From NCBI GenBank assembly GCA_000276965.1, contig AKKQ01000005.1:1-60626 (forward strand): a stretch of 60,626 nt of DNA, given 5' to 3'. Origin of the DNA: Thiovulum sp. ES. Lineage in GTDB: Bacteria > Campylobacterota > Campylobacteria > Campylobacterales > Thiovulaceae. The translations under genes were made by a program, and so were the position numbers. Positions 273 to 34,439 of the stretch are shown here, piece by piece; the first letter of the stretch is position 1; every line of letters starts with the position of its first letter. Under the pieces are notes generated by a model, which did no database searches, had not been told where the DNA came from, and was given only the letters and a program-made list of their open reading frames with translations.

Positions 273-989
273 TTATATAAGCATTATGGCAAAATAGATA
301 GCAAAATCGGAAAAATCTTTTGCTTTTTCGGTCGGTTTATCTCCTGCTTTTGTGGAAACAAGTTTTTTAGACTCATCACTAAAGTTATCAGAATCCATAA
401 CTTTTTGGCAAAGTTCCGTAACAGTAAAGTATTTTTCAGGAGTTGGAATACCTTTAAGTTCAGCTAATTCTATAAAATCAACACCTGTCTCTTTTGCAAC
501 AGCACGATTTGAAGTAACGATTAACTCCTCTTCTCGTCTAATTCCAATTTCGTGAAAAGATTTTTTAAAAGCGATCAGCTGTTTTGTAGAAGTTTCGATC
601 TGCTCAGTTCTTTTTCGGAGATAATCAAGATCAGGTATTTCAGATTTAAACGGTTGGTTTTGAGAAAGAATCTCCTCTATTTGCTGATCACACCAAACAG
701 CAAATTCTGGTGATAGCCATCTTGCAAAAGCGATAATTAACTTTTTGTGAATCCAAGTTCCTTGAGCATTTTTATCATTACCACCTTTACGAACCGCCAC
801 TAAATCGCCGAAACGGGAATTCCCGTTTCGGGATAGTGCTTCAATATAAGCTTTAGTATCTTTTAACCTCAACCAATCATTTGATTGCTTATTGAACTGT
901 TTAGCTATTTGAGTAGCATTAATGTATATAGATTCAGAATTTCCAAAAACAACCTCTATATTGTTGTAGTTTCTTGTTATAATTTCCAT
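273..989 (-). CDS. KilA-N domain protein (phage antirepressor-like)
   Basis: N-terminal ~105 aa fit the KilA-N pattern (INATQIAKQF..., GTWIHKKLIIAFARWLSPEFAVWCDQ). The C-terminal half is helical. The 3' end carries a 37-bp repeat also present at 6669-6705. Recognised by eye only. Confidence 0.7.
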   Translation of the reverse strand: MEIITRNYNNIEVVFGNSESIYINATQIAKQFNKQSNDWLRLKDTKAYIEALSRNGNSRFGDLVAVRKGGNDKNAQGTWIHKKLIIAFARWLSPEFAVWCDQQIEEILSQNQPFKSEIPDLDYLRKRTEQIETSTKQLIAFKKSFHEIGIRREEELIVTSNRAVAKETGVDFIELAELKGIPTPEKYFTVTELCQKVMDSDNFSDESKKLVSTKAGDKPTEKAKDFSDFAIYFAIMLI

Positions 990-1102
990 TATAAAGCCTT
1001 TTAATTGGTTCTTATTTTATTCTGGATTGGTTTATTTTGAACGGTTAGCCAATTCAGAACTGAATTCTAACATAAAAATAATAGTAATAGTATTTATGTG
1101 TA

Positions 1103-1309
1103 TTAGTTTATTTTTAAGCTTACTTGATCGTAAAGTTTAGCTTTTTTATATGCTTCTATATATAGCTTTATGACTTCTGGAGTTTCTACTTCACCTTTTA
1201 CCCATCTATTAACTGTGTTAGTTGTTCTTTTTATATGTAGAGAAAAATCTTTCTGTGTCATTCCAATTGATTTTAGTTCTGCTTTTAAATTAAAGTTTTG
1301 TTCACTCAA
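1103..1309 (-). CDS. small XRE-family helix-turn-helix protein
   Basis: 68 aa with an HTH-like segment (GMTQKDFSLHIKRTTNTVNRWVKGE). Lies downstream of the ATPase/RM pair on the same strand. Confidence 0.55.
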   Translation of the reverse strand: MSEQNFNLKAELKSIGMTQKDFSLHIKRTTNTVNRWVKGEVETPEVIKLYIEAYKKAKLYDQVSLKIN

Positions 1310-1454
1310 TCATAACCTCCCCTTTTTGAAAAATTTTACCATAGTAGCAAAGTTGTAGAGATTTCAAGTTGATTATAAGTTATTTGAGTCCTTAATATCT
1401 CTAATTCTGCTTATCGCTTCCTCTAATTCGCTTTTATAAAGTGGTTTTGATGTA

Positions 1455-7135: not shown

Positions 7136-7972
7136 ATGGAAAAGATGAATAAAGAGCAACAAGTTATTGCTGAAACAGAAAAAAGACATCAGATTGTTGG
7201 GGATACAATTGAGAAAATTGCCCATCAATGGCGACAACCTCTCAACACAGTCTCTTTATTGATGCAAGAGTTGTATTTTAAGATTAATTTGGGAACTCTC
7301 TATTCTGGGCAGGAAAATGAAGAGCAGTTAAAAGAGGTTTTTGCTGAGCAATATAACGATTTATACGACAAAGTAAATTTGCATTTGCAATATTTATCTG
7401 AAACTGTTGATGATTTTCGGAAGGCTGTTGTTTTCAATGGAAACAAAGAGAGAAAATATTTCTCAATTAAAAATTTCATAGAGGAACTTTCTGGATTTGT
7501 TGAGACTTCTCTCGAGCATGAAAAAATCAAATTAACAACATTGACAGATATAAAAAGTATGAAAATTGTAGAGGTGAATGGAGTCGAAAACGATTTAAAA
7601 CAGGTCGTTTTAAATATTATTCATAATTCCCAAGATATTTTTAGAGAGAGAGAATTAAAAAATAGGAAAATTGAGATCAGCACTCGCCTTTCAAACTCAA
7701 ATAAAATAGTTTTAGCAATTCGAGATAATGCTGGGGGAATTCCTGAAGATATTCTTGATAAGGTTTTTGATCCATATTTCACAACAAGACATGAGACACG
7801 GGGAACAGGACTCGGTTTATATATGTCAAGAGAGATGATTTTAAAAAGTTTTGGTGGAAATATTAGGGCAGAAAATAGTAACAATTGCTCAAAATCTGAA
7901 AACAGTTGTGGAGATGGATTTGGAAAAGGTGCTTGTTTTATAATCGAGATTCCTGAATTTAGAGAGATTTAA
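7136..7972 (+). CDS. cytoplasmic sensor histidine kinase (HisKA + HATPase_c), orphan
   Basis: H-box IAHQWRQPLN, N-box VVLNIIHNS, G-boxes RDNAGGI and GTGLGLYMS. No TM segment and no adjacent response regulator. Confidence 0.8.
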   Translation: MEKMNKEQQVIAETEKRHQIVGDTIEKIAHQWRQPLNTVSLLMQELYFKINLGTLYSGQENEEQLKEVFAEQYNDLYDKVNLHLQYLSETVDDFRKAVVFNGNKERKYFSIKNFIEELSGFVETSLEHEKIKLTTLTDIKSMKIVEVNGVENDLKQVVLNIIHNSQDIFRERELKNRKIEISTRLSNSNKIVLAIRDNAGGIPEDILDKVFDPYFTTRHETRGTGLGLYMSREMILKSFGGNIRAENSNNCSKSENSCGDGFGKGACFIIEIPEFREI

Positions 7973-17368: not shown

Positions 17369-17494
17369 ATTCTAACTCCAAAGTTTTAAATCTATCAAAT
17401 TTTAACACAAACTTAAATTAATTTTAAGTTAAATATCAATATTTAGAAATTAGATTTTTTTGAAAATCCGCCTTAAAAAAGCGGAGATAGGTTA

Positions 17495-19117
17495 CTATTT
17501 TATAGAGAATGTTGAGAATATTTTGTTTTCTTTTATTTGTTTAGAAGTCGAAAGAAGCTCTTTTCCGTCGTGGTGAATTTTGATAATTCTGTTTTCGTCA
17601 AATTCCCAATCAAGCTGAATCGACTCATCTTTGTTGTAAAATTTATCAAGAGTGATAAATGCACCATCAATTTCTCGTAATTTGTGCTGATCTTTTGCAT
17701 CAACTCCGTAATAGAGAAAAATATCTGCTCGTTTTGTAGTTTCACTAAATTTAAAATTGTAAGTTCCAGTTTCGGGAGCTTTGACATCATGCGGAATCAA
17801 TTTCTCAAATCTTCTACCATTTCGGATAAAAATCGAGTCGCTCATGACATCGGTAATTTTGATTTTTTTCAATTTGTGATTATTAAAATTGTAGCTATGA
17901 ATTGAAGCACCTTTTGAAACTGCTTCTCGTTCAGTAAAATCAACAATCTTAGTTGTATTGCCGAAAAATTTACGAAGAGTCTCTTCAACAAGATAGAATT
18001 TACCAGAACCACCAGTAAGAATCACCATATCAATATCATCTTTTTGCAACTTTGACTTTTTGAGAGTATTGATAAGTGGCTGAAGAAGTTTCCCATTATT
18101 CGCGATGAGGTCGGATAAAATTTCTCGTAAGTTTTGATCATTCAGAGTCAAATCACGAATTGAGAGACCATCGATAATTTCAAAATTTACTGTTTCTCTT
18201 TTTCTCTGTTTTAATTTTGGATTCTCTGTGCTTGAAATCTTTTTTGAGAGTGAAACTTTGTGTCTTTCTGCATGAGAAACAATTCTTGAAACAATCACAG
18301 CTTGTTCTTCTGGAGTTCTAGCAGAAATAGACGGATTTATTTTTTCAAACTCTTCTAAGAAATAAGAGGCAATTCTTTTATCAATATCATCTCCACCAAA
18401 ATCCATTCGTTCTGAACGACCAAGAATTGAAATATCAAAATCGTCATCATCTAACAAGATGTTTGCAATCGAAATATCTAGTGTTCCTCCGCCAATATCA
18501 TAAACAAGGACTTTTCGGTTTTTATCAAAAAATTCATCTCCAAACTCAAAAGAGTTTTCAGAATTCAAAAAATACAATAAAACAGCTGTCGGTTCATCAA
18601 GCAAATTTACATGCTGAAAACCTGCAAGATGTCCAGCTTCAATTGTAGCTCGTCTCTCATCACTATTAAATCCAGCAGGAATTGTAATCGTAACAGCTTC
18701 AAAGTCGTCTGAACCGAGTTGTTGTTTTACAGAATCTCTTATTTGTTTCAAAAGAATTGAAGAGAGTTCAGTCATATCAAAAGATATTTTGTCATTTTTA
18801 TCATTTTGAAGAGGAACATCAATTTCGGATTCTCCACCAATTCGAGTCTTTACAGAACGAATAGTTTGGAGGGGCTTATGCCCGTCGCTGTAAATCTTTT
18901 TTGCAAACTCACCAACATAAATTGTCTCTGTTTCTCGATTGATGTAAATGCTTGATTGCAAACCATTCATATTTGTTACAGAGTTATGGCTAGAGTCGTG
19001 CTGGAAAATATTGAGACTTCTTAGTTTTTCCATTGGATTATCTCTCCGTCCAGAAATCTCAACAACTGATACAGTGCTTTCCGTAGTTCCTAAATCAATC
19101 CCAATACTATTTCCCAT
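17495..19117 (-). CDS. Hsp70-family ATPase paralog 4 (NBD plus beta-rich C-terminus, no helical lid)
   Basis: Phosphate-1 GIDLGTTEST, connect LDEPTAVLLYF, phosphate-2 VYDIGGGTLDIS. The adenosine motif is degenerate (LTGGSGKFYLV). The start overlaps the upstream gene by 11 nt. Confidence 0.8.
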   Translation of the reverse strand: MGNSIGIDLGTTESTVSVVEISGRRDNPMEKLRSLNIFQHDSSHNSVTNMNGLQSSIYINRETETIYVGEFAKKIYSDGHKPLQTIRSVKTRIGGESEIDVPLQNDKNDKISFDMTELSSILLKQIRDSVKQQLGSDDFEAVTITIPAGFNSDERRATIEAGHLAGFQHVNLLDEPTAVLLYFLNSENSFEFGDEFFDKNRKVLVYDIGGGTLDISIANILLDDDDFDISILGRSERMDFGGDDIDKRIASYFLEEFEKINPSISARTPEEQAVIVSRIVSHAERHKVSLSKKISSTENPKLKQRKRETVNFEIIDGLSIRDLTLNDQNLREILSDLIANNGKLLQPLINTLKKSKLQKDDIDMVILTGGSGKFYLVEETLRKFFGNTTKIVDFTEREAVSKGASIHSYNFNNHKLKKIKITDVMSDSIFIRNGRRFEKLIPHDVKAPETGTYNFKFSETTKRADIFLYYGVDAKDQHKLREIDGAFITLDKFYNKDESIQLDWEFDENRIIKIHHDGKELLSTSKQIKENKIFSTFSIK

Positions 19118-20420
19118 TTCTACTCTCCTTTTTCTCTTCAGAAGTTTCTACTTTTGTTTCGGGTTTTTCTGAACTTGTTTCAGAATTTTCAACTTTTACG
19201 ATTTCATCAACTTCAGCTTTTTCAACGACCTCATCGCCAATTTTGATAGCATGTTTTAGAATTTTGTAAGTTTTACCAATTTCAACATTTCCAAGAACAA
19301 CGAGCAAATCATCACTGTTTGTTTTTGTAACTTCGATTTCTTGATCAACTTCAAATTCAGTTTGCACAACATCACCAAAAACAGAAGAGACCTCTAAAAA
19401 CTTAGATGGAAAACTTTCGTGAAGTTGTTTTGCAAGTTCTAAGTTCTTTTTTTCCATTCCAATTTTTTCAGCTTTTGCAATCTCACTTTCTAACTCTTTT
19501 TTGTGTTTCTGTTCAACTTTTTGGAGGTTTTCCAAATCACCCTTTTTTGAAATATAAAGCCGAGAAATTTTTGAAAGTTCAGCTAAACCATCTCTCATAT
19601 ACTCCTCAAGTTCATCAATCGCTTTTTCCTCTTTTGGCACAACTGAATCTTTTTTAGCATCACTGTTTCCAATTTTTTCAGGCAATTCAGAAAGAGTTTT
19701 TTCCAAACTTTGGAGATTTTGCAATTGTCTTGTTTGCCCCTGAATTGACTCAACATTAGTAGAAAGCTCTTTCAATTTCTCTTCTAGTTTTTCTTCAAGA
19801 ACAAATTCAAAATCTTTAGATTTTAAATAGTCATTTGGGATTTTCATTTTTTGAGATTCAGGAAATTTGATTTGAGAAATTCTGTTTTTAATATCTGCTG
19901 TTTCATCAAAAACAGTTTTCTCAATATCTTTTTTCATATTTTCAACTTCAACTTTCCAAAAATCAAATTTTGGCATTGCATTTTTGATTTTTTTCAAAAG
20001 AGAGTTTTTATCATCTTCTTTTAAAACATCAGTGCTGTTTGCAACTTCATCAAGCAATTTGCCTTTTTGATCCAAATCTTTTTGCATTGCAACAAATTCT
20101 TTTTTTAAATATTCTTTGATTTCTTCTTTTAGTGTTCGTAAGTCATCTGAGACTCTTGCAAGTTCTAAGTTTTCGTTTGGTTCTTTGTTGTTCAGGTAAG
20201 TTTGTTCATCTTTTTGTCCTTCTGGTTTTTTAAATTTGCTGTATTTCTCATCTTTTTTATTTTGACTAGCCATTTTTTTTCCTTTAGTTTGATTTGGTCT
20301 TTTTGTTTCTTGTTGTTTTTCTACTTTTGAAATTGTATTTTCCGTAGCAGACTCTTTTTGTCCAAAAACTACATCAACTCCGAATTTAATCGGAGCTGTA
20401 ATAATTTTAAAAGGATTCAT
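19107..20420 (-). CDS. K/E-rich coiled-coil protein with a small beta-rich C-terminal domain
   Basis: 437 aa. Residues ~90-330 are long heptad-like charged helices. The C-terminal ~90 aa are beta-like (VVQTEFEVDQEIEVTKTN...GNVEIGKTYKILKHAIKIGDEVV). Overlaps both neighbouring genes. Confidence 0.6.
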   Translation of the reverse strand: MNPFKIITAPIKFGVDVVFGQKESATENTISKVEKQQETKRPNQTKGKKMASQNKKDEKYSKFKKPEGQKDEQTYLNNKEPNENLELARVSDDLRTLKEEIKEYLKKEFVAMQKDLDQKGKLLDEVANSTDVLKEDDKNSLLKKIKNAMPKFDFWKVEVENMKKDIEKTVFDETADIKNRISQIKFPESQKMKIPNDYLKSKDFEFVLEEKLEEKLKELSTNVESIQGQTRQLQNLQSLEKTLSELPEKIGNSDAKKDSVVPKEEKAIDELEEYMRDGLAELSKISRLYISKKGDLENLQKVEQKHKKELESEIAKAEKIGMEKKNLELAKQLHESFPSKFLEVSSVFGDVVQTEFEVDQEIEVTKTNSDDLLVVLGNVEIGKTYKILKHAIKIGDEVVEKAEVDEIVKVENSETSSEKPETKVETSEEKKESRNGK

Positions 20421-21913
20421 TGTTCGATTTCTTCAAATTCACCCCGAAGAACCTCGTTTTTGTTTTCATCGTAAAAGATGTAGCCAATTTCACCAGAGTC
20501 ATCATCTCGATAGAGTGAAAGGAAAATTGTATTTGATGGAAAAACTGTGCCGTCAATTGTTGCTTTTCCAATTTTTTCACACTCATCAATTTGCCCACTT
20601 TCACCCTCGTAAAATGAGAGAATAAAATCCTCTTTGAGATTAGAGTTTCCAATTCGTAATTTATATTCTGGAGAAATTTCACCGTAAGGGCTGTTTTTTC
20701 GTAGGATTTTTTGAAAACGGTTTCCAATTGCGACACCAACAGATTTACTTGTTTTTCTGATAACTGTATATTTTAGAGAGTCATCAACAGAAAGACCTGC
20801 CAAAATACCTGCACCGTGTCCAACAAGTTCCCCTAAGTTTTTTCGAGCTTCAGGTTCAAATCCGAAAAAATCACGAACAATATCTTTGATAATTGGAATT
20901 GAACTTGAACCACCAGCTAAAATCACTCGGTCAATATCAGATGGATCTAAATCAGCATCAGCAATTGCAATGTCAAGAGCATCTTCGATTTCACCAACAA
21001 TATTTGCAGTTCGTAGCCAATCTTCAAACTCATCTCGAGAGAGTTCTCGGTCAATAACTTTTGACTCATTATTTATACTCAAACCACCTTTGTAAATCTC
21101 AACTTCATCTTCTTCACTAAGGAGTTCTTTGTTTTCTCTTGCCTCTTTTAAAAGTTCTCTTTTAAGTATCTTTTGCTCTTTTTCAACTTGAATATCTGAA
21201 AGACTTATTTTTAAATCTTGTTCTAAAAACTTATTGACGATTTTTGCATCAATATTTTTACCTCCAAGTTTTTCAACTCCACCAGTATTTAAAACTTCGA
21301 TTTTTGCATGTTGCTTGTCATCTTTTTCAAACTTAAAAATAGTGAGATCAAAAGTTCCTCCCCCGAAATCAAAAACAACGATGTTCTCTTTCTTTCCATT
21401 CTCAATTTCATCACCAAAAACACCAAAAGAGATAGCAGCAGCAACAGGCTCTTCTACAAGTTTTATAACAGGTATTCCAGCATTTTCTGCCGATTTTTTG
21501 ATTCGTTTTCGATACTTATCTCCATAAGCATAGGGAACAGTGATAACAGCACCATCAATTTTTTTTCCACCATGAGTAGCTTCAACTTTTTCACGAATTC
21601 CTGTAAAAATCATCTCAGCAATATCTGAAGCTGTAACTTGACGATCACCTAAGTTTGGAACTCTCCACTTTTGGTTATCTGAAGTGATGTGTCTTTTTAC
21701 ATCATCAAAAAAGTTTAGAGTGTCATCCATTCGGTTTCTTTTTCCGAGAATATATTTTCCATCTCCCTCGATGTAAATCACATTGTCGAAAATATCACTA
21801 CCTGCATAGCTTCCCATATTTGCAACAGCAACAGCATCTTTTCTGACAAAGTCATATTTTGTTACAAAGTTTGTCGAGTTCCCAAAATCAATTCCAATAT
21901 ACAATTTATCCAT
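20417..21913 (-). CDS. Hsp70-family ATPase paralog 3
   Basis: Divergent phosphate-1 GIDFGNSTNF. VEEPVAAAISFG, VFDFGGGTFDLT and LAGGSSSIPII are present. The beta-sandwich-like C-terminus has no lid. 4-nt and 8-nt overlaps with neighbours. Confidence 0.8.
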   Translation of the reverse strand: MDKLYIGIDFGNSTNFVTKYDFVRKDAVAVANMGSYAGSDIFDNVIYIEGDGKYILGKRNRMDDTLNFFDDVKRHITSDNQKWRVPNLGDRQVTASDIAEMIFTGIREKVEATHGGKKIDGAVITVPYAYGDKYRKRIKKSAENAGIPVIKLVEEPVAAAISFGVFGDEIENGKKENIVVFDFGGGTFDLTIFKFEKDDKQHAKIEVLNTGGVEKLGGKNIDAKIVNKFLEQDLKISLSDIQVEKEQKILKRELLKEARENKELLSEEDEVEIYKGGLSINNESKVIDRELSRDEFEDWLRTANIVGEIEDALDIAIADADLDPSDIDRVILAGGSSSIPIIKDIVRDFFGFEPEARKNLGELVGHGAGILAGLSVDDSLKYTVIRKTSKSVGVAIGNRFQKILRKNSPYGEISPEYKLRIGNSNLKEDFILSFYEGESGQIDECEKIGKATIDGTVFPSNTIFLSLYRDDDSGEIGYIFYDENKNEVLRGEFEEIEQ

Positions 21914-22661
21914 TTACAATTCTCCACATATTTACTTTTCCGTCTGCAATTGCTCTATTTTCTGCAACCATGTAAGGAAATGAGATTACATTTTTAATTA
22001 CATGAGCTAGGTTTCTGTCTGTTGTGTTGCATTTATCACACTCTTCTGGCTGAATAAAATCATATTTTTTATCATCAAGTTTTTCACCAGCTTTTAATTC
22101 CAGAGTGAAAATTCCAATGTTTTTCAAGAATGAGTTGAAGATTTGTAAAACTTGCTGGTAAAACGGTTTTTCATCAATTCCACTTTCGAGAACTCTCACA
22201 ACTTCAGAAATAAAGCTAGAAAAGTTTTTATCAATTGCGATGAGGTACTCATCTGAAAGTTTTTGCAAATTCCAATTCTCATCTATCTTGAATTTTTTCA
22301 CTGCTGAAATTAATTTTCGTGTTCTGTTGTCAATTGTTTTGCCTATAATTTCGAGAGACTCAATTTCACTTTCTGAAAGTTGTTTTTCAACTCTGTCCAA
22401 AAAATCATCGAATTTCTCTGCAAAAGAATCAACTTCATCTAAAAATTTCTTTTTTTGACTTTCAAAATCATCATGAGATGTCGGTTTTCCAAAAAGAGAT
22501 TTTTCACCCTTTTCAATCATAAAAAGAGTTAAGTAATTCACATCTTTATCACTTTCAGAATCTTTTTGAACAATTGCAATTGGGCGAAAATGCCCAAAGT
22601 CTTTTGTTAAAATCTCATCAAACTTTTTATTTAGACTTACGATTTTGTCAAAGTTATACAT
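21906..22661 (-). CDS. GrpE-like putative nucleotide-exchange factor (start re-set to the MYNFDK ATG)
   Basis: The track ORF runs to 22769, but that extension lies inside the upstream gene. The ATG at 22661 gives an ATGTATAA overlap with the upstream stop. A helical N-terminal part is followed by FLKNIGIFTLELKAGEKLDDKKYDFIQPE and ...VISFPYMVAENRAIADGKVNMWRI. This resembles the GrpE four-helix-bundle/beta-domain junction. Similarity was judged by eye only. Confidence 0.4.
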   Translation of the reverse strand: MYNFDKIVSLNKKFDEILTKDFGHFRPIAIVQKDSESDKDVNYLTLFMIEKGEKSLFGKPTSHDDFESQKKKFLDEVDSFAEKFDDFLDRVEKQLSESEIESLEIIGKTIDNRTRKLISAVKKFKIDENWNLQKLSDEYLIAIDKNFSSFISEVVRVLESGIDEKPFYQQVLQIFNSFLKNIGIFTLELKAGEKLDDKKYDFIQPEECDKCNTTDRNLAHVIKNVISFPYMVAENRAIADGKVNMWRIVNG

Positions 22662-24672
22662 CTGAATTTCCTTTGATTGAAATATCTCGGCTATCAACTT
22701 TTGTGCCATCTCGGTGAAAAACTTCAGCAGAAACAAGAAGTGTGTCATCTCGACCAAGCTCAAACTCAACTCTAATTGTCAATTCTCCAGCTTTTGCTTT
22801 TGGAATTCCGCTAAATTGAATTGTGTCGATAAAATCAACTCCCTTGTCAAAAACTCTTGAACTTTTTCCAAAAACTCTTGAATTTCTGTTATAAATCTCC
22901 ACATTGATATTCTCTTGGTCATCTCGTTCAGTTTGGAAATCTTTTGTAAAACTAACTGGTAAATCTGTTCCCTCTGAAATCAACTCAAAAAATTGATGTC
23001 CTCGAATTGCAACTCCAAAATCTTTAATTGCTTCATCACTTTCAAAACTTTTATCATCAATTCCATCTTCAGAACCCCAAGTTCGTACAGCTTCAATAAC
23101 TCCACCTTTTGAAATAACGGTAGAAGTGTCTTGAGTGAAAGATGGAGTTTTGCCAAGAGTATCAATGAGAGAATCTCGAATACTTGGAATATTTGAGCTA
23201 CCACCAGCAAGAACGACCTCATCGATGTCATCAGCCATAAAATTGAGACCAGACATTAAATCTTTAACAACATCAAGAGCCTCTTTCCGAATTTCAGTAA
23301 TTGCGCTCTCAAACTCTCTTCGAGTAATTGTGTAGCTTAAATTTATATTTCCGTTTTGAGTTTTAAAATCAGAAATCTGAATTTCCGTTTGTTCAAATTC
23401 AGAGAGTTCAATTTTTGTATTTTCGGCAGAACTTAAAACAAAAGCAACATTTGTGTTGTAATCTTTTTCAGATAATTCACTCTCATCTTTGTCAAACATA
23501 TCAATATCATGTTCATCTAAAATTTTCTCAAAAATAAGTTCAGTCAATTTCTTTGTTACATCTTTTCCACCGAGTGAATTGTTTCCATTAGCACCAACAA
23601 CTTTAATATCAATATCTTTGCCGTTTTTCTCAGTTTCCAAAATTGAACAATCTAGTGTCCCGCCACCAAAATCAAAAACTAAAATTCGTTTGTCTGCTTC
23701 CGACTCAATTGCATAGGATAAACCAGCTGAAACAGGCTCTTTTTGGATACGAACTTCACCAAATCCTGCCTCTTCTCCAGCCTCTTTAATTATCGTGATT
23801 TGACTTGGATTGAAATTTGCAGGAACAGTAATTACAGCTTTTTCAATGTAATCTTTTAGATATTTCTCACTCTCCTCTTTTAAATGTTGCAAGAAAATTC
23901 TTGAAGCATCTTTTGGAGTAATTGTTAAATCACTGCTATTTTTTACTTGCTCTTTTCCTTTTAAAGCACGAAAATCAATAAGCGAAACTGTTTTAATTCC
24001 ACCAACAACATCTTCTGCTTTTACCTTTAAACCTTTGTCATTTGTAATCAAATATGTTTCTGGATTTAAATCTGTAAAAGTTTTAGCAATTGACAAAACA
24101 CGATTATCATTTTCACTGTTTTTCGTATCTTTTTCCAAGTCATCTGGCAAAATATCTAAATTGCTATCTTCAAAAAATATGTTTCCAGAATCTTTTAAGT
24201 CGTCAATACTTTTCATTGCCTCTTTTGCACTAACTTCGATATCTGGATTGTTTGCTAAATTGTGGAGTTCATCAACAACTTTATTTGGCAATCTCACAAA
24301 ATCCGACTTTCCAAACTCTTTTAAAATTTCAGGTGCATCAATAAAGATATTTGTATCAATTACAAAATTTATTTTAGTTTCGACCTCATCGCTATTAAAA
24401 GCAAAAGTATATTTTGTAGAACTTCCAATATCACTTTTAAACTCTTTTAGTAGGAGTTCTGGTTTTACTGCACCTTTTGCAATTGCTCTTGAACCAAAAA
24501 CGATCTTTTTTGAATCTTCAAAAAATAGTGCTGTTGGAATAATCTTTTTTTTCTTGAAAAGAACCTGCTCGATTTGTCCCTTGTCAAAATATGAGACGAC
24601 TGAATTTGTTGTTCCAAAATCTATTGAGATTGTTTTTCCATTTGCTTCTGTGAATTCTAACTCTTCTGCCAT
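22654..24672 (-). CDS. Hsp70-family ATPase paralog 2 with a PIN nuclease domain inserted in the NBD
   Basis: Hsp70 motifs SIDFGTTNS, AVITVPANF, QKEPVSAGLSY, VFDFGGGTLDCS and LAGGSSNIPSI. Residues ~101-236 form an insert with PIN-type acidic motifs: VIDTNIF, VVDELHNL, ENDNRVLSIA and ITNDKGLKVKA. Confidence 0.8.
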   Translation of the reverse strand: MAEELEFTEANGKTISIDFGTTNSVVSYFDKGQIEQVLFKKKKIIPTALFFEDSKKIVFGSRAIAKGAVKPELLLKEFKSDIGSSTKYTFAFNSDEVETKINFVIDTNIFIDAPEILKEFGKSDFVRLPNKVVDELHNLANNPDIEVSAKEAMKSIDDLKDSGNIFFEDSNLDILPDDLEKDTKNSENDNRVLSIAKTFTDLNPETYLITNDKGLKVKAEDVVGGIKTVSLIDFRALKGKEQVKNSSDLTITPKDASRIFLQHLKEESEKYLKDYIEKAVITVPANFNPSQITIIKEAGEEAGFGEVRIQKEPVSAGLSYAIESEADKRILVFDFGGGTLDCSILETEKNGKDIDIKVVGANGNNSLGGKDVTKKLTELIFEKILDEHDIDMFDKDESELSEKDYNTNVAFVLSSAENTKIELSEFEQTEIQISDFKTQNGNINLSYTITRREFESAITEIRKEALDVVKDLMSGLNFMADDIDEVVLAGGSSNIPSIRDSLIDTLGKTPSFTQDTSTVISKGGVIEAVRTWGSEDGIDDKSFESDEAIKDFGVAIRGHQFFELISEGTDLPVSFTKDFQTERDDQENINVEIYNRNSRVFGKSSRVFDKGVDFIDTIQFSGIPKAKAGELTIRVEFELGRDDTLLVSAEVFHRDGTKVDSRDISIKGNSDV

Positions 24673-24733
24673 TTTTTCCCTTTGCTTTGTTGTTTAAATT
24701 ATATTTTTTGGACAGGACAAAACCTGTCATTTA

Positions 24734-26716
24734 TTAAAAACTTTGTAGTGAGCTTGTGATTTTTTGGAAAATTGATGACAATTGACTAAAGTCCGAACCT
24801 GAATAGTAGTGTGCCGATGAGGTTGCAAGATTTCTCAAAAAGATTTCATCAACTCCATCACCAATTCCAATCGTGATTAGAGTTGTGTCAGATTTCATAT
24901 AATTCCCTTCACTCATTGCACTATCTTGCCAATCTGGATAGCCATCAGTAACAATAATTGCTAGTTTTTCATTTCTTGCTCCAGAAAGAACCTGTCTTGC
25001 CTGTTCAATTCCACTAGCCATATTTGTCGAGCCTCGACATTCAATATTTGAGATTCTGTATTGCAAATCACTTTGAGAATTTGAGAGATTTGAAACAACT
25101 GAAGCAGAGCTACCAAATTCAACAACACCAACATTGTGAGTATTCAAATCAATCATGTCAGAAACAAGAAGCTGACAAGCATTTTTTGCTTGTTGTATTG
25201 GAGTCCCACACATGCTTCCAGAAATATCAACAGTTAAAACAATGTCAAAAGATTTTTCGTATGTTTTTTTAACTCGTTTCACTGCACCTTTTTCAATATC
25301 AACAGCCTCTTTTCTGCTACTTCCAGTTCTCACATCTTGTGCCGTAACATGTAAAATTCTGTTTTCGTCAAACTCAAAAGTAACATCGATTTGTGGAACT
25401 CCAGCAGGTGCTTTTTCAATATTTGAGAGAGAGAAACCTCCGTAATAATCATTCATATTTACATCAGAATCTTCACCCTCGAAAATCTCAATCTGAATTT
25501 CTGGTTGGTAATTTGAGACAGTTGTGTATCTTTTTGTAAATGAGATTGGGTATTGCTGATTTTTTTTCAAAATTGCTGAAAATTCATCATTCACCATTTC
25601 AATACCGAGTGAGTGAGAAATGATGTCGATAATTTGAATGCTGTCTCCAGAGTTTGCAGTAAGAGAAGCACCCATTGCTACAAGTTTGTCAAGTGGTTTA
25701 TCCGAAAAAGGTTGTTTCCCAAAAAAGTTTGTAACAAATTTTTGAACGGCAGGAATTCGTGAGCTACCACCAACAAGAACAACTTTATCAATATCATTTA
25801 TAGAAAAACCTCCGTTTGAAAGAGTATTTTCAATTGTGTTTTCAATTTTTCGGAGTGTATTTTTTGCGATTTTTTCAAATTCAGCACGAGTCAAATTCAT
25901 AGAGAGGGAATAACCACCAAAAAGATTTGGGATTTCAATCTCACTGTTTTCAGCATCAGAAAGTGCAATTTTTGTCTCTTCAGCATATTTCAGAATTGTT
26001 TGCCGAGCTTTTCTATATTCATCCTGTGGAAGTCCCGATTTTTTCAATGAAGATAAATCTGTTCCGTGATCTTTTCGGATATGTTTAAAAACTGCTTCGA
26101 TAATGTGATTGTCAAAATCATCACCACCGAGTCGATTGTCTCCGTCAAGTGCCAGAGTTTGGAATTTTCCTGCTGAAACTTGTAGAATTGAAGTATCAAA
26201 AGTTCCTCCACCAATATCTACAATAAATAGCTTTTCGTTTGCTCCACTCTCAAAACCGTAAGCAATTGCTGCTGCAACTGGTTCGGTAATAATTTGCTTG
26301 ACTTTAAAACCAGCATTTTCACCTGCTCGTTTTGTCTCATCAATTTGTGAAGATTTAAAATAAGCAGGAACAGTAATAACTGCTTCGACCTCATCGTTAC
26401 CAGTATGTTTTTTAATTCCTTTTTTGATTTCACTCAAAATTTCTGTTGCCACATCAGTTGGTGAAAAAGTTCTATCTTCAATTTTCCAACTTTTTTTCAT
26501 GTCGCCCATAAATGTCTTGGACGAACTGATATAATTTTCTGGATTTGTTAAAGATCGTTTTTTTGCAGAATCACCAATTCTAACTTTTCCACTTTCGTAA
26601 TACAAAACAGATGACAAACTTTCCAATCTACCAAATTTGATTTGCTCAAAATTTCCTCTATCGAAAATTGTTGCCACACTGTTTGTTGTTCCTAAATCAA
26701 TACCTACTTTTATCAT
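24734..26716 (-). CDS. Hsp70-family ATPase paralog 1 fused to a C-terminal vWA (MIDAS) domain
   Basis: Canonical GIDLGTTNS, ITEPVAAAIAYG, IVDIGGGTFDTS and LVGGSSRIPAV, plus an SBD-beta-like segment. Residues ~490-657 carry DISGSM...GSTNM...IIVTDGYPD, a complete DxSxS-T-D MIDAS. Confidence 0.85.
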   Translation of the reverse strand: MIKVGIDLGTTNSVATIFDRGNFEQIKFGRLESLSSVLYYESGKVRIGDSAKKRSLTNPENYISSSKTFMGDMKKSWKIEDRTFSPTDVATEILSEIKKGIKKHTGNDEVEAVITVPAYFKSSQIDETKRAGENAGFKVKQIITEPVAAAIAYGFESGANEKLFIVDIGGGTFDTSILQVSAGKFQTLALDGDNRLGGDDFDNHIIEAVFKHIRKDHGTDLSSLKKSGLPQDEYRKARQTILKYAEETKIALSDAENSEIEIPNLFGGYSLSMNLTRAEFEKIAKNTLRKIENTIENTLSNGGFSINDIDKVVLVGGSSRIPAVQKFVTNFFGKQPFSDKPLDKLVAMGASLTANSGDSIQIIDIISHSLGIEMVNDEFSAILKKNQQYPISFTKRYTTVSNYQPEIQIEIFEGEDSDVNMNDYYGGFSLSNIEKAPAGVPQIDVTFEFDENRILHVTAQDVRTGSSRKEAVDIEKGAVKRVKKTYEKSFDIVLTVDISGSMCGTPIQQAKNACQLLVSDMIDLNTHNVGVVEFGSSASVVSNLSNSQSDLQYRISNIECRGSTNMASGIEQARQVLSGARNEKLAIIVTDGYPDWQDSAMSEGNYMKSDTTLITIGIGDGVDEIFLRNLATSSAHYYSGSDFSQLSSIFQKITSSLQSF

Positions 26717-26776
26717 TCATCTTCCCTTTAAATTTTCAGAATTGTAAAGTCCTTGACGGACTATGATTGTCTAAAA

Positions 26777-28126
26777 CTAGACTCTTCTTTGTAAAAACTC
26801 AATTAGTTTATAGTGTCTATATCTTTGTGAAAAAGTTTCTGTGTTTCTATGTCGCGAATGAAGTTCAACAAGGTTGTTTCCAATTTGATCGATGAGGTCT
26901 TTTGGCAAACCATTAATTTGTTGAAAAATTTTGTAGTTTCCAATATTCCGTGCAAAATGGTAAGCCAGAACTTTTTTAACTCTCCCATCTCCACCATGTG
27001 AATTTACAATCTGTTTAACAAGAGAAGTGTTTCTTTCCAAGTTTCGACTTAAATAATACAAACGAGCAATATTAAATTGTGGATTTCCATTCAACTTATT
27101 TAAAAATTCTTTCAATGAATTAAAGCCTGATGAATCACTCCAGTTTTCAATACTTTCAACAACTTTTTGTTCTTTATCTGAAAAAGAGACTCCTTGATTC
27201 TTTAATTCTGAAATAATGTTTTGTGCTTTTTCTTTACTTTTAAACCTCGGTGGTTCAAGCATTTGTATAAAAAGTCCTTTCATACTCAAAAAATCATAAT
27301 CTGTGTAAGCATCTACAATCTCATCTTCAAAAGAGTTCAGTTTATGGAATTTAGATAGAACTCCACGAACAAGAAAAGGAAGCATATTTTTATCATGTGA
27401 ATTGTTTGCAATAAACTCCATAAGTGCATCAAATCCATCTTCACCGAGATGTTCTAATGATTTAAACCAAATTGCATCTCTGTCTTTGTCATTTTTGTTT
27501 TCTAAAATCCAATTTGCAATATCTCTTTTATCTGAAAGAAGTGTAAAAATACTCTGAAAAAATTGAGAATCTTTTGTTTTGGTGTAATTAAAGATTTCGG
27601 GATTCTTCTTGAATTCACTTTCCAAAAATTGAGGTAAAAGATGCTCTTTTGTTTTCATGTAATCTTTGACAATTCTCTCAAAGCATTCAGTTCGAGATTC
27701 AACCATTTCTGATTTGTTGGCAAAAGTCTTTTTACAATCGTCGAGAGAAGCTTTTTCATTGTAAAGACTGTTGAGAAATTCACGAAAATTTGTATCTGCA
27801 TAAATATTGTTTTCAACAACATCTTTTGAAATTTCTGTGAAATATTGTGGGGGAAGAGATAGGAGTGTCTTTTTGAAAAAATCTTTCACATTTTTGTTTT
27901 GAAAGAAATTTTCTTTAATCAGCCAACTGTTTTTAAGTAAAACTTTGCTGAAGATCTTTGTCCCGTGTTTTTGGGAGAGTGTTTTTAAATCCTGTATTGA
28001 GCTATTTGAGATAGCTTTTCGTATCACTTCATTATCATTTTTACTGATATATAAAGTGTTATCCTTTTCAAAACGGAGGTCGAGAGCTTTTTCCACTTTT
28101 GAGAGTGTTTCCATGCAAGTCTCCAA
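26777..28126 (-). CDS. hypothetical all-helical protein heading the Hsp70 cluster
   Basis: 449-aa ORF, same strand, 60 nt upstream of the Hsp70-vWA gene. No motif I can recognise. The repetitive helical character suggests an ARM/HEAT-like scaffold. Confidence 0.5.
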   Translation of the reverse strand: METCMETLSKVEKALDLRFEKDNTLYISKNDNEVIRKAISNSSIQDLKTLSQKHGTKIFSKVLLKNSWLIKENFFQNKNVKDFFKKTLLSLPPQYFTEISKDVVENNIYADTNFREFLNSLYNEKASLDDCKKTFANKSEMVESRTECFERIVKDYMKTKEHLLPQFLESEFKKNPEIFNYTKTKDSQFFQSIFTLLSDKRDIANWILENKNDKDRDAIWFKSLEHLGEDGFDALMEFIANNSHDKNMLPFLVRGVLSKFHKLNSFEDEIVDAYTDYDFLSMKGLFIQMLEPPRFKSKEKAQNIISELKNQGVSFSDKEQKVVESIENWSDSSGFNSLKEFLNKLNGNPQFNIARLYYLSRNLERNTSLVKQIVNSHGGDGRVKKVLAYHFARNIGNYKIFQQINGLPKDLIDQIGNNLVELHSRHRNTETFSQRYRHYKLIEFLQRRV

Positions 28127-28242
28127 TTATTTTTGAGAATTGTAAAAAATCAGAAAGACAGAAATAGTCTATTTTAATTCTGTTTCTAAACATGGTCTTA
28201 AATTATAAAAAAAAACTATACTTTGTCAAGTTACGGAATTCT

Positions 28243-28416
28243 TTGTTACTTCGTAAAAAACTTTCAATTTTTGACACTCGTGGATACAACGAAAAAGAAC
28301 ATAACTCTTTGATTCAGCAAAAACGAGGTGAATATTTAAAAACTTTAACATCAATGGTAGAAGTTGGATTTGTCAAAGACTATGGTAATTTGAGAGAGGT
28401 TCTTTTTAAAATTTAA
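28243..28416 (+). pseudogene. inverted 3' fragment of the KilA-N-like paralog family
   Basis: Encodes LLRKKLSIFDTRGYNEKEHNSLIQQKRGEYLKTLTSMVEVGFVKDYGNLREVLFKI. This is near-identical to the C-termini of ORFs 54100-54852 and 55735-56655 but on the opposite strand, and the N-terminal body is absent. Confidence 0.7.
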
Positions 28417-28430
28417 ATTTTTTCTACATC

Positions 28431-28454
28431 TTTGTCGGAAAAAGTTCCGACAAA
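28431..28454. terminator. perfect 10-bp hairpin at the 3' end of fliH
   Basis: tttgtcggaa-aaag-ttccgacaaa lies immediately beyond the fliH stop and the fragment stop. The flanks are A/T-rich. Confidence 0.4.
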
Positions 28455-28456: not shown

Positions 28457-29284
28457 CTAATCGACTTTTGAGAGAATCGACTCTTTTACAACTTTAAATC
28501 TATCCATAATATTTCCCTCAACTGTTCCGACATCTGAAGAGAGAATTACTCCGCCTCGAGAAATTGCACTATCTAAAATAATTTTAACATTCTCCATTTT
28601 TGATAGTGAAGTTTTTAAATCATCAATATCTCCACTATTTGCATGAATTGTAATTTCTGTCGCTTCATTTAAACTTTTGATAAGAGATTTTGAGAGATTT
28701 ATCGCAACTTGACCGCTATTAAAACTAATTTCACCAGTTAAAACCTCTTTTGCAATTGCAATTGATGTATGAACAAGCTCTTTTTCAAAATTCTCTGAAA
28801 GACTCTCAAATTGAGTTGAAATTGTTTCCAATTTTTTCATTGAATTCCCAAGCCGTTCTAAATTTTGATGATACTTATTTTCATTATTTCTTTCAGCTTG
28901 TAAAATTCCATCATGAACACCTCTTTGGTAAGAATCGTGCTTGATACTTTTTAATTCTGCTTGAAAAAGCTGTTCTTGATTATCAAGTTTGCCTCTTAAA
29001 CTAGCAATTTCATTTGTTAGAATTTCGCTTTTTTGAATTAGAGTCTCAATTAGTTCATCTCGTTTTCTAACAGATTCATTTTCAGAGCTTTGCTTCTGTT
29101 TTACTGGTTCATTTTTTGTTGGAAGTCCAGCTTGAAAATCTTCACTCTCTTTTTTTTCTGGTTGTCTAATTTGAGTTTTTAAAAATGGCTGAAAATCTGT
29201 TCCGCCTTTTGATTCATCTAAATCTACAAATGAAAATTGGACAATTTCGTGTTTCTCTTTGTGGTTTTCTAAAACGACGCCCAT
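28457..29284 (-). CDS. fliH: flagellar export apparatus protein FliH
   Basis: Charged coiled N-terminal half. FliH-type C-terminus (AKEVLTGEISFNSGQVA...ISRGGVILSSDVGTVEGNIMDRF). Confidence 0.65.
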   Translation of the reverse strand: MGVVLENHKEKHEIVQFSFVDLDESKGGTDFQPFLKTQIRQPEKKESEDFQAGLPTKNEPVKQKQSSENESVRKRDELIETLIQKSEILTNEIASLRGKLDNQEQLFQAELKSIKHDSYQRGVHDGILQAERNNENKYHQNLERLGNSMKKLETISTQFESLSENFEKELVHTSIAIAKEVLTGEISFNSGQVAINLSKSLIKSLNEATEITIHANSGDIDDLKTSLSKMENVKIILDSAISRGGVILSSDVGTVEGNIMDRFKVVKESILSKVD

Positions 29285-32339: not shown

Positions 32340-34439
32340 TTAAATCTCTCTCAAAACCCTAAATCCAATTGAAGAACTTTTACTATTTTGGTGATATTTT
32401 GCACGATTTGACGGTCGCAAATAAAATCTTTTTGTTTTCCAATCTCCGCCCCGCATACTTTTATAAGAACTTGCTCGTTTTGTCAAATAGTTTCGATTGT
32501 AACTATCACTTGTAAATTCCCAAACATTTCCCGCAATATCATAAACACCAAATGGATTTTGCTCTTTTTGTCCAACTGTATGAATTCCACCACCACTATT
32601 TTCAAAGAACCAAGCATAGTCATCAATTTTTCCAGTTTGCGAAATTTGGTCAAAACTTAATCCACTTTTTGCGACATATTCCCACTCGACTTCAGTTGGC
32701 AAACGATATTTTTCACCACTCTCTTTTGAAAGCCATTCCGCATAAGCAACTGCATCATTCCACGAAATTCCGACAACTGGACAATTATCGTCAAAACAGA
32801 CTTCAGAAAATCTGTTTTCATTTCCAAACCATTCGGGAAAATGTGATTTTGTTGCTTTTGCAAATTCTAAATATTCTCCAACAGTAATTTCATATTTTCC
32901 GATGAAAAAATCATTTTCAATTTTCCAATTTCGTGCGGGTCGTTCATCACTTTCGCCAGAATTTGAACCAAACATAAATTCGCCTTTCTCAATTTTCACA
33001 AAACGATATTTTTGCAACTCTTTTCGCTTTGGTAAATTACGATCTCGAAACTCAATTGAGAGTGAAACCAAAGCACCAGTTCGGTCTGTTCCTGAAACAA
33101 AATAAGGCACAACTTTTGCATCAACATAAAATTTGTCATATTCGACTTCATTCACAATATCTTTTAAAATTGCTTCACCGTTAAAAACGGTCTCGATACT
33201 TTTTGATGTTTTTTGTAGCGATTTGTCAATATCAAGAAAAAGTTCTTTAGCAATTTCCTTGGTTTCACGAACAGCATTTGAGTGTTTTCGGTCATACATT
33301 TCCGCACGAGTAAATTTGATGCTTCGTTTCAACTCAATCAATTCACTTTGCAATAGAAAAAACTTGTCTTCCAAATTTCGCTTTTCACGATTTAAAAGGA
33401 GCAAATCAACTTTCAATTCTTCGACCTCATCGTTAAGTAGTTTTTCAGTATTTTGTAAAATTGCTAAAAGTTCTTTTCGTTTTGAGACTCGCTTAGATAT
33501 TTTTTCTTTGAATTGGAGACTGTTTTTCTCAATTTCCAAAACAACATCTCGACTTTTATTATTGTGTTCCTCGATTGATTTTAAAGCCTGTTCAACACGA
33601 TTCTGAATTGAAAAATCAATCGCAAATTTTGGATACTCTTTTTGGATTTCAGAAAAGACCCGCTCAATATCCCGCTGGTTTTGTATCAAAGTTACATATT
33701 TCACACCAAAATCGGAATGCCCATGTTTGGAAACCGCACTATTTTTTTCATCAAACGGATAAACATCAACAACTGTTCCGTAAATCAAAACTGAAGAGTG
33801 TCTATCTTTTGAAAAGAAAATTTTGTTTGTCGTCTCCGAGCTATCAGAAATCGCAGTTCCCGATGAGGTTGTCCGAATTCTTTGATACAATTTTTTGTCA
33901 AATCGCTTGATGCTTTCAACAAAAATCCCGTTCAACTGATTTATCGCTTCCCGATTTATTTCGCCAACAGCTCTTTCAATAAATTGGTCTCGACTCACCG
34001 AGCGACGATCCTCCACAAATGCAAAAAGATAACCCCGAGTTGAAATATTTGAATTAAATGAAGTCTCTTTTTTTACCAAATTTTCCAATTCTGAGATATG
34101 TTTTTTCTCATTTTGCAAATCTTTTTGAATCTGTTCTAATTTTGCTTCCTTGCTTTTTAAAAGAGTTTTTATCCCTGAAATCTCCTCTTTTTTCTCTTTT
34201 AAAGTTCTGTCCAAATATGAAGCATCAATTGAGAGTCGTAAAGTTTTGCTTTTAAATTTGCTCCGTTCTTCTTCAAGTTGCAAATTTATGTGTTCCAAAA
34301 GCTCTTTTGCCTCATTTTCTCGTAACGACTCATTGTCGATTTTTTGAGCGGTGATTTCGGAAATTGTCTTTGATGTTAGAGATTTAAAATCTTCAGCAAA
34401 AACAAAAATCGGAAATATCAGAAAGAGTAATTTTTTCAT
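32340..34439 (-). CDS. secreted coiled-coil protein with C-terminal FGE-sulfatase (SUMF1/formylglycine-generating enzyme-like) domain
   Basis: Signal peptide MKKLLFLIFPIFVFA. About 450 aa are largely coiled/charged. The C-terminus has FGE-family blocks GISWNDAVAYAEWLS, RLPTEVEWEYVAK, GNVWEFTSD, RGGDW and IGFRV. Confidence 0.8.
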   Translation of the reverse strand: MKKLLFLIFPIFVFAEDFKSLTSKTISEITAQKIDNESLRENEAKELLEHINLQLEEERSKFKSKTLRLSIDASYLDRTLKEKKEEISGIKTLLKSKEAKLEQIQKDLQNEKKHISELENLVKKETSFNSNISTRGYLFAFVEDRRSVSRDQFIERAVGEINREAINQLNGIFVESIKRFDKKLYQRIRTTSSGTAISDSSETTNKIFFSKDRHSSVLIYGTVVDVYPFDEKNSAVSKHGHSDFGVKYVTLIQNQRDIERVFSEIQKEYPKFAIDFSIQNRVEQALKSIEEHNNKSRDVVLEIEKNSLQFKEKISKRVSKRKELLAILQNTEKLLNDEVEELKVDLLLLNREKRNLEDKFFLLQSELIELKRSIKFTRAEMYDRKHSNAVRETKEIAKELFLDIDKSLQKTSKSIETVFNGEAILKDIVNEVEYDKFYVDAKVVPYFVSGTDRTGALVSLSIEFRDRNLPKRKELQKYRFVKIEKGEFMFGSNSGESDERPARNWKIENDFFIGKYEITVGEYLEFAKATKSHFPEWFGNENRFSEVCFDDNCPVVGISWNDAVAYAEWLSKESGEKYRLPTEVEWEYVAKSGLSFDQISQTGKIDDYAWFFENSGGGIHTVGQKEQNPFGVYDIAGNVWEFTSDSYNRNYLTKRASSYKSMRGGDWKTKRFYLRPSNRAKYHQNSKSSSIGFRVLREI

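Follow-up and report, generated by a model that had tools for sequence, protein, structure and literature searches.

Four lidless Hsp70 paralogs, one with an embedded PIN domain, in a strain-variable gene island of Thiovulum sp. ES: a candidate chaperone-based conflict system

Why would a bacterium keep four Hsp70 genes side by side, one of them interrupted by a PIN nuclease domain and another fused to a von Willebrand factor A (vWA) domain? The question is raised by seven co-oriented genes on the minus strand of contig AKKQ01000005.1 from Thiovulum sp. ES, of which positions 1 to 60,626 were analysed (the whole 60,626-nucleotide stretch is called the window here). The genes, named G1 to G7 in the order of their transcription, occupy positions 17495-28126. 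An earlier reading of the DNA alone, the original prediction, had outlined seven open reading frames (ORFs) in this interval, and an ORF check found all seven intact. Because unrelated bacteria carry this gene set too, within defence islands and mobile elements, the module probably represents a chaperone-based and so far undescribed immune or conflict system.

G1 (26777-28126) encodes a 449-residue protein without an assigned family, G2 (24734-26716) a 660-residue lidless Hsp70 with a C-terminal vWA domain that carries a metal-ion-dependent adhesion site (MIDAS), and G3 (22654-24672) a 672-residue lidless Hsp70 with a PIN domain inserted in subdomain IB of its ATPase domain. They are followed by G4 (21906-22661), whose weakly GrpE-like 251-residue product is modelled as a four-helix bundle with a small C-terminal beta domain; its start was taken as the ATG used by homologues, the longest G4 ORF extending to 22769. 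G5 (20417-21913) encodes a lidless Hsp70 of 498 residues, G6 (19107-20420) a lysine- and glutamate-rich coiled-coil protein of 437 residues with a weak signal for a GrpE-like C-terminal domain, and G7 (17495-19117) a lidless Hsp70 of 540 residues that is the most divergent of the four paralogs. As had been noted, the last five genes overlap, by 8, 8, 4, and 11 nucleotides for G3/G4, G4/G5, G5/G6, and G6/G7, respectively, and the two 8-nucleotide overlaps, G3/G4 and G4/G5, are also present in homologous loci. The seven proteins may thus form a stoichiometric complex.

All four Hsp70s match the HSP70 family (Pfam PF00012), with E-values of 1.7e-110 for G2, 3.8e-65 for G3, 3.9e-58 for G5, and 6e-50 for G7, and belong to the Hsp70 superfamily at 170-370 bits against a cut-off of 20.6. 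In each case the profile match ends at model positions 438-501 of 599. Aligned to DnaK, which was used purely as a ruler, each protein comprises an ATPase domain, a linker, and a beta-sandwich substrate-binding domain, and then stops. The alignment and the profile ends therefore agree that these proteins have neither a helical lid nor an EEVD tail, as originally proposed. All four paralogs retain the residues D8, K70, E171, D194, GGG, T199, and D201 (DnaK numbering), as does each orthologue that is not truncated at that point (17-28 per paralog, with 25 for G2 and 17 for G7), so that the actin-fold phosphate motifs are retained, again as expected. Sequence identity among the four paralogs and to DnaK is only 23-33%, G2 being 33% identical to DnaK, while orthologues of G7 are 54-59% identical.

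These are not ordinary chaperone genes in an ordinary chaperone operon. No Hsp70 qualified for a DnaK or HscA equivalog family, the best NCBIfam score being 390 bits against a cut-off of 648, and none of the seven proteins matched DnaJ at E≤0.01 in Pfam or NCBIfam, in line with the earlier statement that the cluster encodes no J-domain (HPD) protein. The missing lid, the missing J-protein, the equivalog scores below cut-off, and the variable presence of the locus described below rule out a housekeeping dnaK operon, and the claim that the cluster is not dnaK-grpE-dnaJ stands on the same grounds.

The PIN_4 domain occupies residues 103-220 of G3 (24013-24366, minus strand; PF13638, E=1.2e-16, 61.7 bits against a cut-off of 21.9). 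It sits between two HSP70 stretches, where it takes the place of the hairpin at about residues 77-108 of DnaK in subdomain IB. Four acidic residues, D106, E135, D189, and D212, are invariant in 24 homologues, and the nearest NCBIfam match of the insert is the PIN domain of PhoH2 (E=2e-7). The profile match and the four acidic residues bear out the prediction of an Hsp70 with an inserted PIN domain. The vWA domain occupies residues 491-651 of G2 (24764-25246, minus strand; PF00092, E=5e-23, 82.5 bits against a cut-off of 23.8), and its MIDAS motif, read from the translation, is complete: DISGS, GSTN, and TDG, corresponding to DxSxS...T...D. Among the related loci, the vWA domain is found in a subset only and is missing from the G2 orthologues of L004, L006, L007, and others. 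The predicted Hsp70-vWA fusion is thus present in the window, but it was overstated as a part of the system, the domain being optional in the family. Profile searches uphold the Hsp70, PIN, and vWA assignments alike, and this pattern of domains cannot be due to chance.

Is the cluster a unit, or a chance assembly in one genome? There are approximately 70 full-length homologues of the Hsp70-PIN protein G3 at 42-64% identity, with a more distant group at 32-35%. Positional orthologues of all seven genes were found on contigs that encode Hsp70-PIN homologues and in 28 further metagenome loci identified by a search with the PIN insert. The seven-gene set recurs gene for gene in approximately 25 loci of other taxa, including a gammaproteobacterial metagenome-assembled genome (MAG), Colwellia hornerae, and Lachnospiraceae. 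Orthologues of the Hsp70s are 55-68% identical and those of the accessory proteins 27-41%, whereas the paralogs are 23-33% identical. Three cyclic gene orders occur, G1-G7, G2-G7 followed by G1, and G3-G7 followed by G1 and G2, and in all permutations G1 lies beside G2 and G3-G7 form a block. The seven genes are a conserved, co-inherited unit.

Two sequenced bacteria carry the module. Colwellia hornerae ACAM 607 was the one true match in a profile search of genome contigs with Hsp70-PIN, the other 79 of 80 loci being ordinary dnaK; this search was swamped by generic DnaK motifs, and isolate genomes are poorly sampled by it. The second carrier, Lachnospiraceae bacterium C1.1, has an expanded module on a 4.08-Mb record that adds a hydrolase of the metallo-beta-lactamase (MBL) fold with a weak RMMBL match, a 362-residue protein, a fifth Hsp70 of 941 residues, and an SNF2 helicase. 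In the contig collection, the index lists the G4-family protein of this Lachnospiraceae variant for 191 blocks. Searches with tblastn found no orthologue of G4, the Firmicutes G4, or G3 in the 72,556 plasmids of PLSDB, and no orthologue of G4 in the INPHARED phages, with only ordinary dnaK matched in both; the viral contigs of IMG/VR contained no relative of the PIN insert. One contig (L125, 1-6007) encodes a 704-residue Hsp70-PIN homologue, 35% identical in the PIN region; next come genes for a 216-residue protein, an AAA ATPase, and a methyltransferase of the C5 cytosine type. Without G4-G7 after the Hsp70-PIN gene, it may represent a distinct, smaller Hsp70-PIN architecture.

How did the module come to lie where it does in the window? 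FliH proteins more than 90% identical to that of the window are encoded on 24 metagenome contigs. In every locus of the relatives that shows both sides (L087-L093, at least seven contigs), nothing but a spacer of 174 or 556 bp separates fliH from metG. Compared by blastn with two of these empty sites (L087 and L088), the window's homology stops at position 17500 and restarts at 28432, with flanks that are 92-94% identical at the nucleotide level. Approximately 16 bp of the relatives' spacer is replaced in the window by an inserted island of 10.9 kb (17501-28431, minus strand), which holds the seven genes, a predicted promoter of their own, and the remnant of a KilA-N gene. Since fliH adjoins metG without the cluster in at least seven related contigs, the cluster is not a core locus of the dnaK type, and strict synteny across the clade, which would have argued for a housekeeping role, is not what the relatives show. 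Other metagenome samples contain near-identical island genes, with P0126 at least 90% identical to G2 and P0145 88% identical to G4. Together with the empty sites, these copies indicate that the island is polymorphic in the natural population. The site is variable even without the island, as the two forms of the empty spacer show; they differ by an additional segment of approximately 377 bp (L087 9785-10162, compared with L088).

The edges of the island can be placed closely. By comparison with L088, the insertion point lies between the fliH stop codon and the fliH terminator hairpin. A hairpin just 3′ of the G7 stop codon (17465-17486, minus strand) is common to the empty site, where it belongs to the original fliH terminator region, although the terminator scan did not call it. 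A perfect sigma-70 consensus promoter, TTGACA-16-TATAAT, is predicted from the consensus match alone 76 bp upstream of G1 (28202-28229, minus strand); it is the sole 12/12 match in the region, where promoter-like sites as a whole are just as numerous as expected from shuffling. At its fliH-proximal edge, the island carries the 3′ remnant of a KilA-N-family gene (28192-28416, plus strand), and beyond it fliH (28457-29284) is the first intact gene upstream of the cluster. The identity of this ORF as a KilA-N fragment, which had been proposed, is confirmed by its similarity to KilA-N-family genes elsewhere in the window, described below. A prophage or plasmid origin of the island was considered and ruled out, the island containing no phage, integrase, or plasmid genes.

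If the module moves between genomes, what company does it keep? The flanks differ between loci. In the gammaproteobacterial MAG (L001), the module lies beside a DDE transposase and between fragments of trpC. There, the module together with a dynamin gene separates 102- and 270-residue fragments of indole-3-glycerol phosphate synthase (7226-7534 and 21281-22019), and it looks as if the module inserted into trpC or duplicated part of it. A second locus (L004) has a Mutator transposase, ArdC, TraD, and a MobA/MobL relaxase beside the module. The Firmicutes loci have contexts that resemble integrative and conjugative elements (ICEs), with sortase, SpoVG, DUF6674, SNF2, AAA_25, and DUF6262 genes. 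We scanned 89 non-redundant flanking proteins from 23 loci and found genes of the defence repertoire. L116 has two copies of DarT together with a NADAR antitoxin and a reverse transcriptase of the DRT UG17 type, and L115 has RAMP/Csm4 and CARF-HEPN genes, which are type III CRISPR accessories. HsdR lies in the flank of L095, an AAA ATPase with a C5 methyltransferase in that of L125, and a UvrD-like helicase with an ADP-ribosyltransferase in that of L114. Radical SAM proteins that flank two loci (L004 and L005) match PADLOC pVip models and are putative viperins.

The genes beside G1 vary as well, and include a dynamin-like GTPase (L001, L005, L104, and L115), a HerA-like ATPase (L100 and L106), and an SNF2 helicase. 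At a further locus (L120), the gene beside G1 encodes a leucine-rich repeat (LRR) protein with a G4-like region. This ORF, upstream of G1 (1-2616, plus strand), combines the repeats with a region 29% identical to G4; its N-terminal S1 domain may be a read-through from the neighbouring rpsA at the contig edge. The fusion of a sensor-type LRR to a system-specific domain hints at a route to variant specificity. The gene-neighbourhood search thus places the module in defence-island and mobile-element contexts in unrelated bacteria, and defence and mobile flanks combined with variable partners are the pattern expected of a conflict system.

What might the three proteins that are not Hsp70s contribute? 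No Pfam or NCBIfam family was matched above threshold by the 449-, 251-, or 437-residue proteins, and profile searches of the PDB with G1, G4, and G6 returned nothing significant. G1 has a conserved N-terminal motif, ALDLRFExDxTLYISK; its orthologues are 27-36% identical in six loci, and it always adjoins G2. Even at E≤1, Pfam offered nothing informative for G1, and the matches to a GUN4_N ARM-like model (E=1e-4) and to McbB are weak.

G4 had been described as GrpE-like, and the evidence is mixed. Its AlphaFold2 model, with a predicted local distance difference test score (pLDDT) of 82, shows the four-helix bundle and the small C-terminal beta domain. An alignment of GrpE proteins, built from genes adjoining dnaK in the dnaK loci of the genome-contig profile search, was compared with G4 by hhalign and gave P=1.1e-4 and a probability of 56% over 96 collinear columns, corresponding to GrpE residues 88-194; the match spans the helices of the GrpE bundle and the entire beta domain. 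With G1 as a control, the same comparison gave P=0.45. The resemblance to GrpE is weakly supported by this alignment but not by the Pfam GrpE profile (PF01025), which matches G4 weakly (E=0.32, with 5 of 42 G4 homologues at E≤1), nor by Foldseek, which found nothing significant for the G4 model in the PDB or BFVD and no GrpE match. Among 1.84 billion representative sequences, the G4 family comprises 170 clusters at 50% identity (102 at E≤1e-10), which describes a family specific to the system, rare but diverse.

Charged residues make up 40% of G6, whose N-terminal peptide is hydrophobic and which contains a long coiled coil. Its residues 255-425 are modelled by AlphaFold2 (pLDDT 80) as a helix of 74 residues, a second and short helix, and a beta domain, and the top eight Foldseek matches of this model in the PDB are all GrpE or GrpEL1, from four organisms (E=0.046-1.1, TM score approximately 0.25). 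The hhalign comparison with GrpE gave P=0.008 over 121 columns. The original description of G6 as a coiled-coil protein was therefore correct as far as it went; the C-terminus also weakly resembles GrpE by fold, so that the weak GrpE signal, first assigned to one protein, is found in two. G4 and G6 are each encoded directly upstream of, and overlapping, an Hsp70 gene. Taking weak signals from profiles and models together, we consider with moderate confidence that both may be very divergent GrpE-like proteins. They are not demonstrably paralogs of each other, as a profile-profile comparison of G4 with G6 found no significant relationship (P=0.045-0.17). The G4 profile also matches the C-termini of coiled-coil proteins of 400-565 residues (P0320-P0355), which begin with a conserved hydrophobic-acidic peptide, MG[LF]xW.F..DEDDF, and appear to form a related family in which a G4-like domain is attached to a G6-like coiled coil.

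Has such a system been described before? The cluster matches no named defence system in PADLOC-DB v2.0.0 (2023): the database gave no real match, only weak partial matches of the ATPase domains of three Hsp70s to the candidate PDC-M61B (E=1e-8 to 3e-4), and nothing for the PIN-Hsp70, G1, G4, or G6. A full-text literature search found no description of a multi-Hsp70/PIN system; it left most subscription papers uncovered, and a prior description is possible. With DnaK-GrpE-DnaJ, the island shares an Hsp70 ATPase domain in which every catalytic residue is present, together with the linker and the beta-sandwich, and it has two weakly GrpE-like partners. In contrast to that machine, it has four paralogs, no lid, no J-protein, and a PIN insert, and it is strain-variable and mobile; in G2 the vWA domain takes the place of the lid. 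In eukaryotes, Hsp70 paralogs that are divergent or truncated assemble into stable hetero-complexes and control each other's nucleotide cycle, as in Hsp110-Hsp70 and in the ribosome-associated complex (RAC) Ssz1-Zuo1 with Ssb. Those are housekeeping proteostasis machines without a nuclease or vWA domain, and their likeness to the island lies in the Hsp70 fold. PhoH2, like G3, couples a PIN_4-type nuclease physically to an NTPase, but there the NTPase is a P-loop PhoH ATPase in a tandem fusion, whereas the PIN domain of the island lies inside an actin-fold Hsp70 ATPase domain.

Hsp70s have been linked to predicted conflict systems in other settings. In the predicted GAP1-N2 type DO-GTPase systems, an HSP70, sometimes a second protein with only an HSP70 domain, and GrpE are linked to paired DO-GTPases with GAP1 and FNIII or DnaJ, the Hsp70 being accessory and present in approximately 14% of neighbourhoods (PMC7159879). 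Those systems resemble the island in combining HSP70 and GrpE with NTP-dependent regulation, and vWA domains recur in them (PMC7159879). The island differs in its Hsp70 core, in its embedded PIN domain as the proposed effector, and in having neither a DO-GTPase nor a J domain; no GTPase domain was found by Pfam in the seven window proteins, and the dynamin-family GTPase of some orthologous loci belongs to a different family. The predicted type III CoCoNuT systems are McrBC derivatives in which an NxD McrB GTPase and an McrC with DUF2357 are joined by an Hsp70-like protein, CnuD, with degenerate Walker A-like motifs (PMC11090510). Unlike these, the island has no McrB or McrC by Pfam, and its four Hsp70s have intact catalytic motifs. 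In the predicted ternary MoxR-vWA conflict systems, a chaperone-type NTPase is combined with a vWA/MIDAS co-chaperone that would set the threshold for effector release (PMC7159879). The NTPase of those systems is the AAA+ protein MoxR; in the island, where Pfam finds no AAA+ domain, the NTPase is Hsp70, and the vWA domain is fused to it and dispensable in many loci.

We favour, with moderate confidence, the reading that the island is a horizontally mobile, multi-subunit, ATP-driven anti-phage or anti-mobile-element conflict system built on four lidless Hsp70s. The suggestion that a conflict system is plausible has gained from the domain profiles, the lack of a named match, the patchy presence of the cluster, and its defence and mobile contexts; from these we infer, rather than observe, a role in conflict. 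A mechanism can be proposed in which the four Hsp70s (G2, G3, G5, and G7) would assemble with two divergent GrpE-like proteins, with G4 pairing with G5 and G6 with G7, each pair being encoded by overlapping genes, and G1 pairing with G2. The open, lidless beta-sandwich domains and, where present, the vWA/MIDAS domain would act as sensors that bind invader-derived or non-native polypeptides. Binding would drive ATP hydrolysis and nucleotide exchange, with G4 and G6 serving as private GrpE-like factors that tune the nucleotide cycle. The resulting movement of lobe I would gate the PIN nuclease in subdomain IB of G3, which could then cut nucleic acid, most likely RNA, and so either shut down the infected cell or destroy the invader's transcripts. 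An RNA target is suggested, and is the more likely one, because the PIN domain is of the PIN_4/PhoH2 type and because the Firmicutes module adds an MBL hydrolase with a weakly matching RMMBL RNA-specificity domain. That a complex forms, that G4 and G6 act in nucleotide exchange, what triggers the system, what the nuclease cuts, and how immunity results are all proposals of this model. In its boldest form, which we put forward only tentatively, the module would define a new immune class in which four to five Hsp70s with GrpE-like exchange factors sense phage assembly intermediates or non-native polypeptides and, through their ATPase cycle, activate a built-in PIN RNase, so that a chaperone would serve as both pattern-recognition receptor and effector within one complex.

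Several points weigh against a conflict function for the island. At the position of DnaK T11, the window copy of G5 has asparagine (residues 8-14, DFGNSTN, in the phosphate-1 loop; window 21880-21900), whereas 20 of 20 orthologues have threonine; because asparagine replaces an otherwise invariant threonine, the ATP response of this copy may be altered or impaired. Without a J-domain partner, a stimulator of ATP hydrolysis is not evident in the cluster. The GrpE signals are sub-significant, with Foldseek E-values of at least 0.046, hhalign probabilities of 5-56%, and a Pfam E-value of 0.32. PIN domains also act in housekeeping RNA processing. The window and two other loci (L002 and L003) have housekeeping flanks, and the association with defence genes is a count of raw occurrences without a genomic background rate. 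Finally, neither an integrase nor a target-site duplication was found in or at the window island, and its guanine-cytosine content (0.328, against 0.325 for the whole window) gives no compositional sign of transfer.

Could the module serve the mobile elements that carry it and not the host? As cargo of ICEs or transposons it might act in addiction, entry exclusion, competition between elements, or anti-defence, with the Hsp70s keeping the PIN domain in an inactive state up to the loss of the element or the arrival of a competitor. Several loci do lie beside a relaxase, ArdC, TraD, transposases, or ICE-type genes (sortase, DUF6674, AAA_25, and DUF6262), and the occurrence of the Lachnospiraceae G4-family protein in 191 blocks of the contig collection fits a successful element. 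Such a context does not separate this explanation from a defence role, because many defence systems are themselves ICE cargo. We consider the explanation unlikely, given that the window island and the loci L002 and L003 lack recognizable element genes, that 7-11 genes are many for an addiction module, and that no orthologue was found in 72,556 plasmids.

A different possibility is that the genes were acquired horizontally for quality control of protein or RNA, or for stress, with no part in immunity, for example as a ribosome-associated Hsp70 set similar to RAC/Ssb with a PIN RNase that acts on the mRNAs of stalled ribosomes. In its favour, the proteins are true Hsp70s that keep their substrate-binding domains and have GrpE-like partners; eukaryotes offer examples of atypical Hsp70 paralogs in stable complexes (RAC and Hsp110), and RNA surveillance makes use of PIN domains of the SMG6/PhoH2 kind. 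A patchy, strain-specific distribution is not what this explanation would lead one to expect, nor are neighbourhoods in defence islands and mobile elements with accessory dynamin, HerA, SNF2, LRR, and MBL genes that vary between loci; the module also has no J-protein, and no Hsp70 in it reaches a curated chaperone equivalog cut-off. We therefore give it a low probability. Lower still is the probability that the actin-fold ATPases polymerize and, with the coiled-coil protein and an optional dynamin, remodel membranes or segregate DNA. Hsp70 shares the fold of actin, MreB, and ParM, weak MreB and ParM matches were seen, a dynamin-like GTPase is linked in several loci, and G6 has its hydrophobic N-terminal peptide and long coiled coil. 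Yet HSP70 is by far a better match than MreB or ParM for each of the four proteins, all of which keep the linker and beta-sandwich, the invariant PIN active site would have no role in such an apparatus, and dynamin is missing from the window and from many other loci, all of which makes it very improbable.

Elsewhere in the window, other variable genes accompany the island. At one end, a KilA-N gene (273-989) is followed by an SMC_N/AAA_21 ATPase (1455-2786) and a 1269-residue Type IIG restriction-modification enzyme (2776-6585) with the domain order DUF7149-DUF7814-Eco57I/MmeI_Mtase-TaqI_C, the whole region (273-6585) being on the minus strand. A relative of the KilA-N fragment had been said to adjoin McrBC; that claim was mistaken, Pfam showing the Eco57I/MmeI-like Type IIG enzyme and the SMC/AAA_21 ATPase instead. 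A tandem array of three KilA-N-family paralogs lies at 54100-56655 (minus strand), and its third member carries a fusion to TPR repeats. The fragment at the edge of the island is 88-90% identical in amino acid sequence to the last 58 residues of two of these tandem copies (54100-54852 and 55735-56655), and this shared C-terminus points to the KilA-N genes being a recombining, multi-copy family that marks variable regions of the genome. Downstream of petABC, the window encodes a 699-residue FGE-sulfatase-domain protein (32340-34439, minus strand), while relatives (L087-L094) have at this site a 1025-residue MmeI-like Type IIG enzyme and up to three to four tandem KilA-N-like genes. By this comparison, the site is a second variable hotspot, approximately 4 kb from the Hsp70 island.

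What would a conflict function of the island mean? Known bacterial defence systems are driven by P-loop NTPases, including AAA+, STAND, and ABC/SMC proteins, helicases, and GTPases. Where Hsp70 has figured in defence so far, it has, to our knowledge, been either an accessory of computationally predicted systems or a host factor exploited by phages. If the favoured reading is correct, a conserved core of co-evolving Hsp70 paralogs, widely transferred between genomes and equipped with an embedded nuclease and GrpE-like partners of its own, would be a new engine in the immune repertoire. It would also provide a tractable case of allosteric control over an enzyme inserted in the Hsp70 ATPase domain, and would reveal how Hsp70s that lack a lid can function without J-proteins. 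Two sequenced carriers, Colwellia hornerae ACAM 607 and Lachnospiraceae bacterium C1.1, are potential native hosts in which to study it. In the communities where it occurs, the Firmicutes variant, because of its abundance, with its G4-family protein in 191 blocks, may matter for the dynamics of phages and mobile elements.

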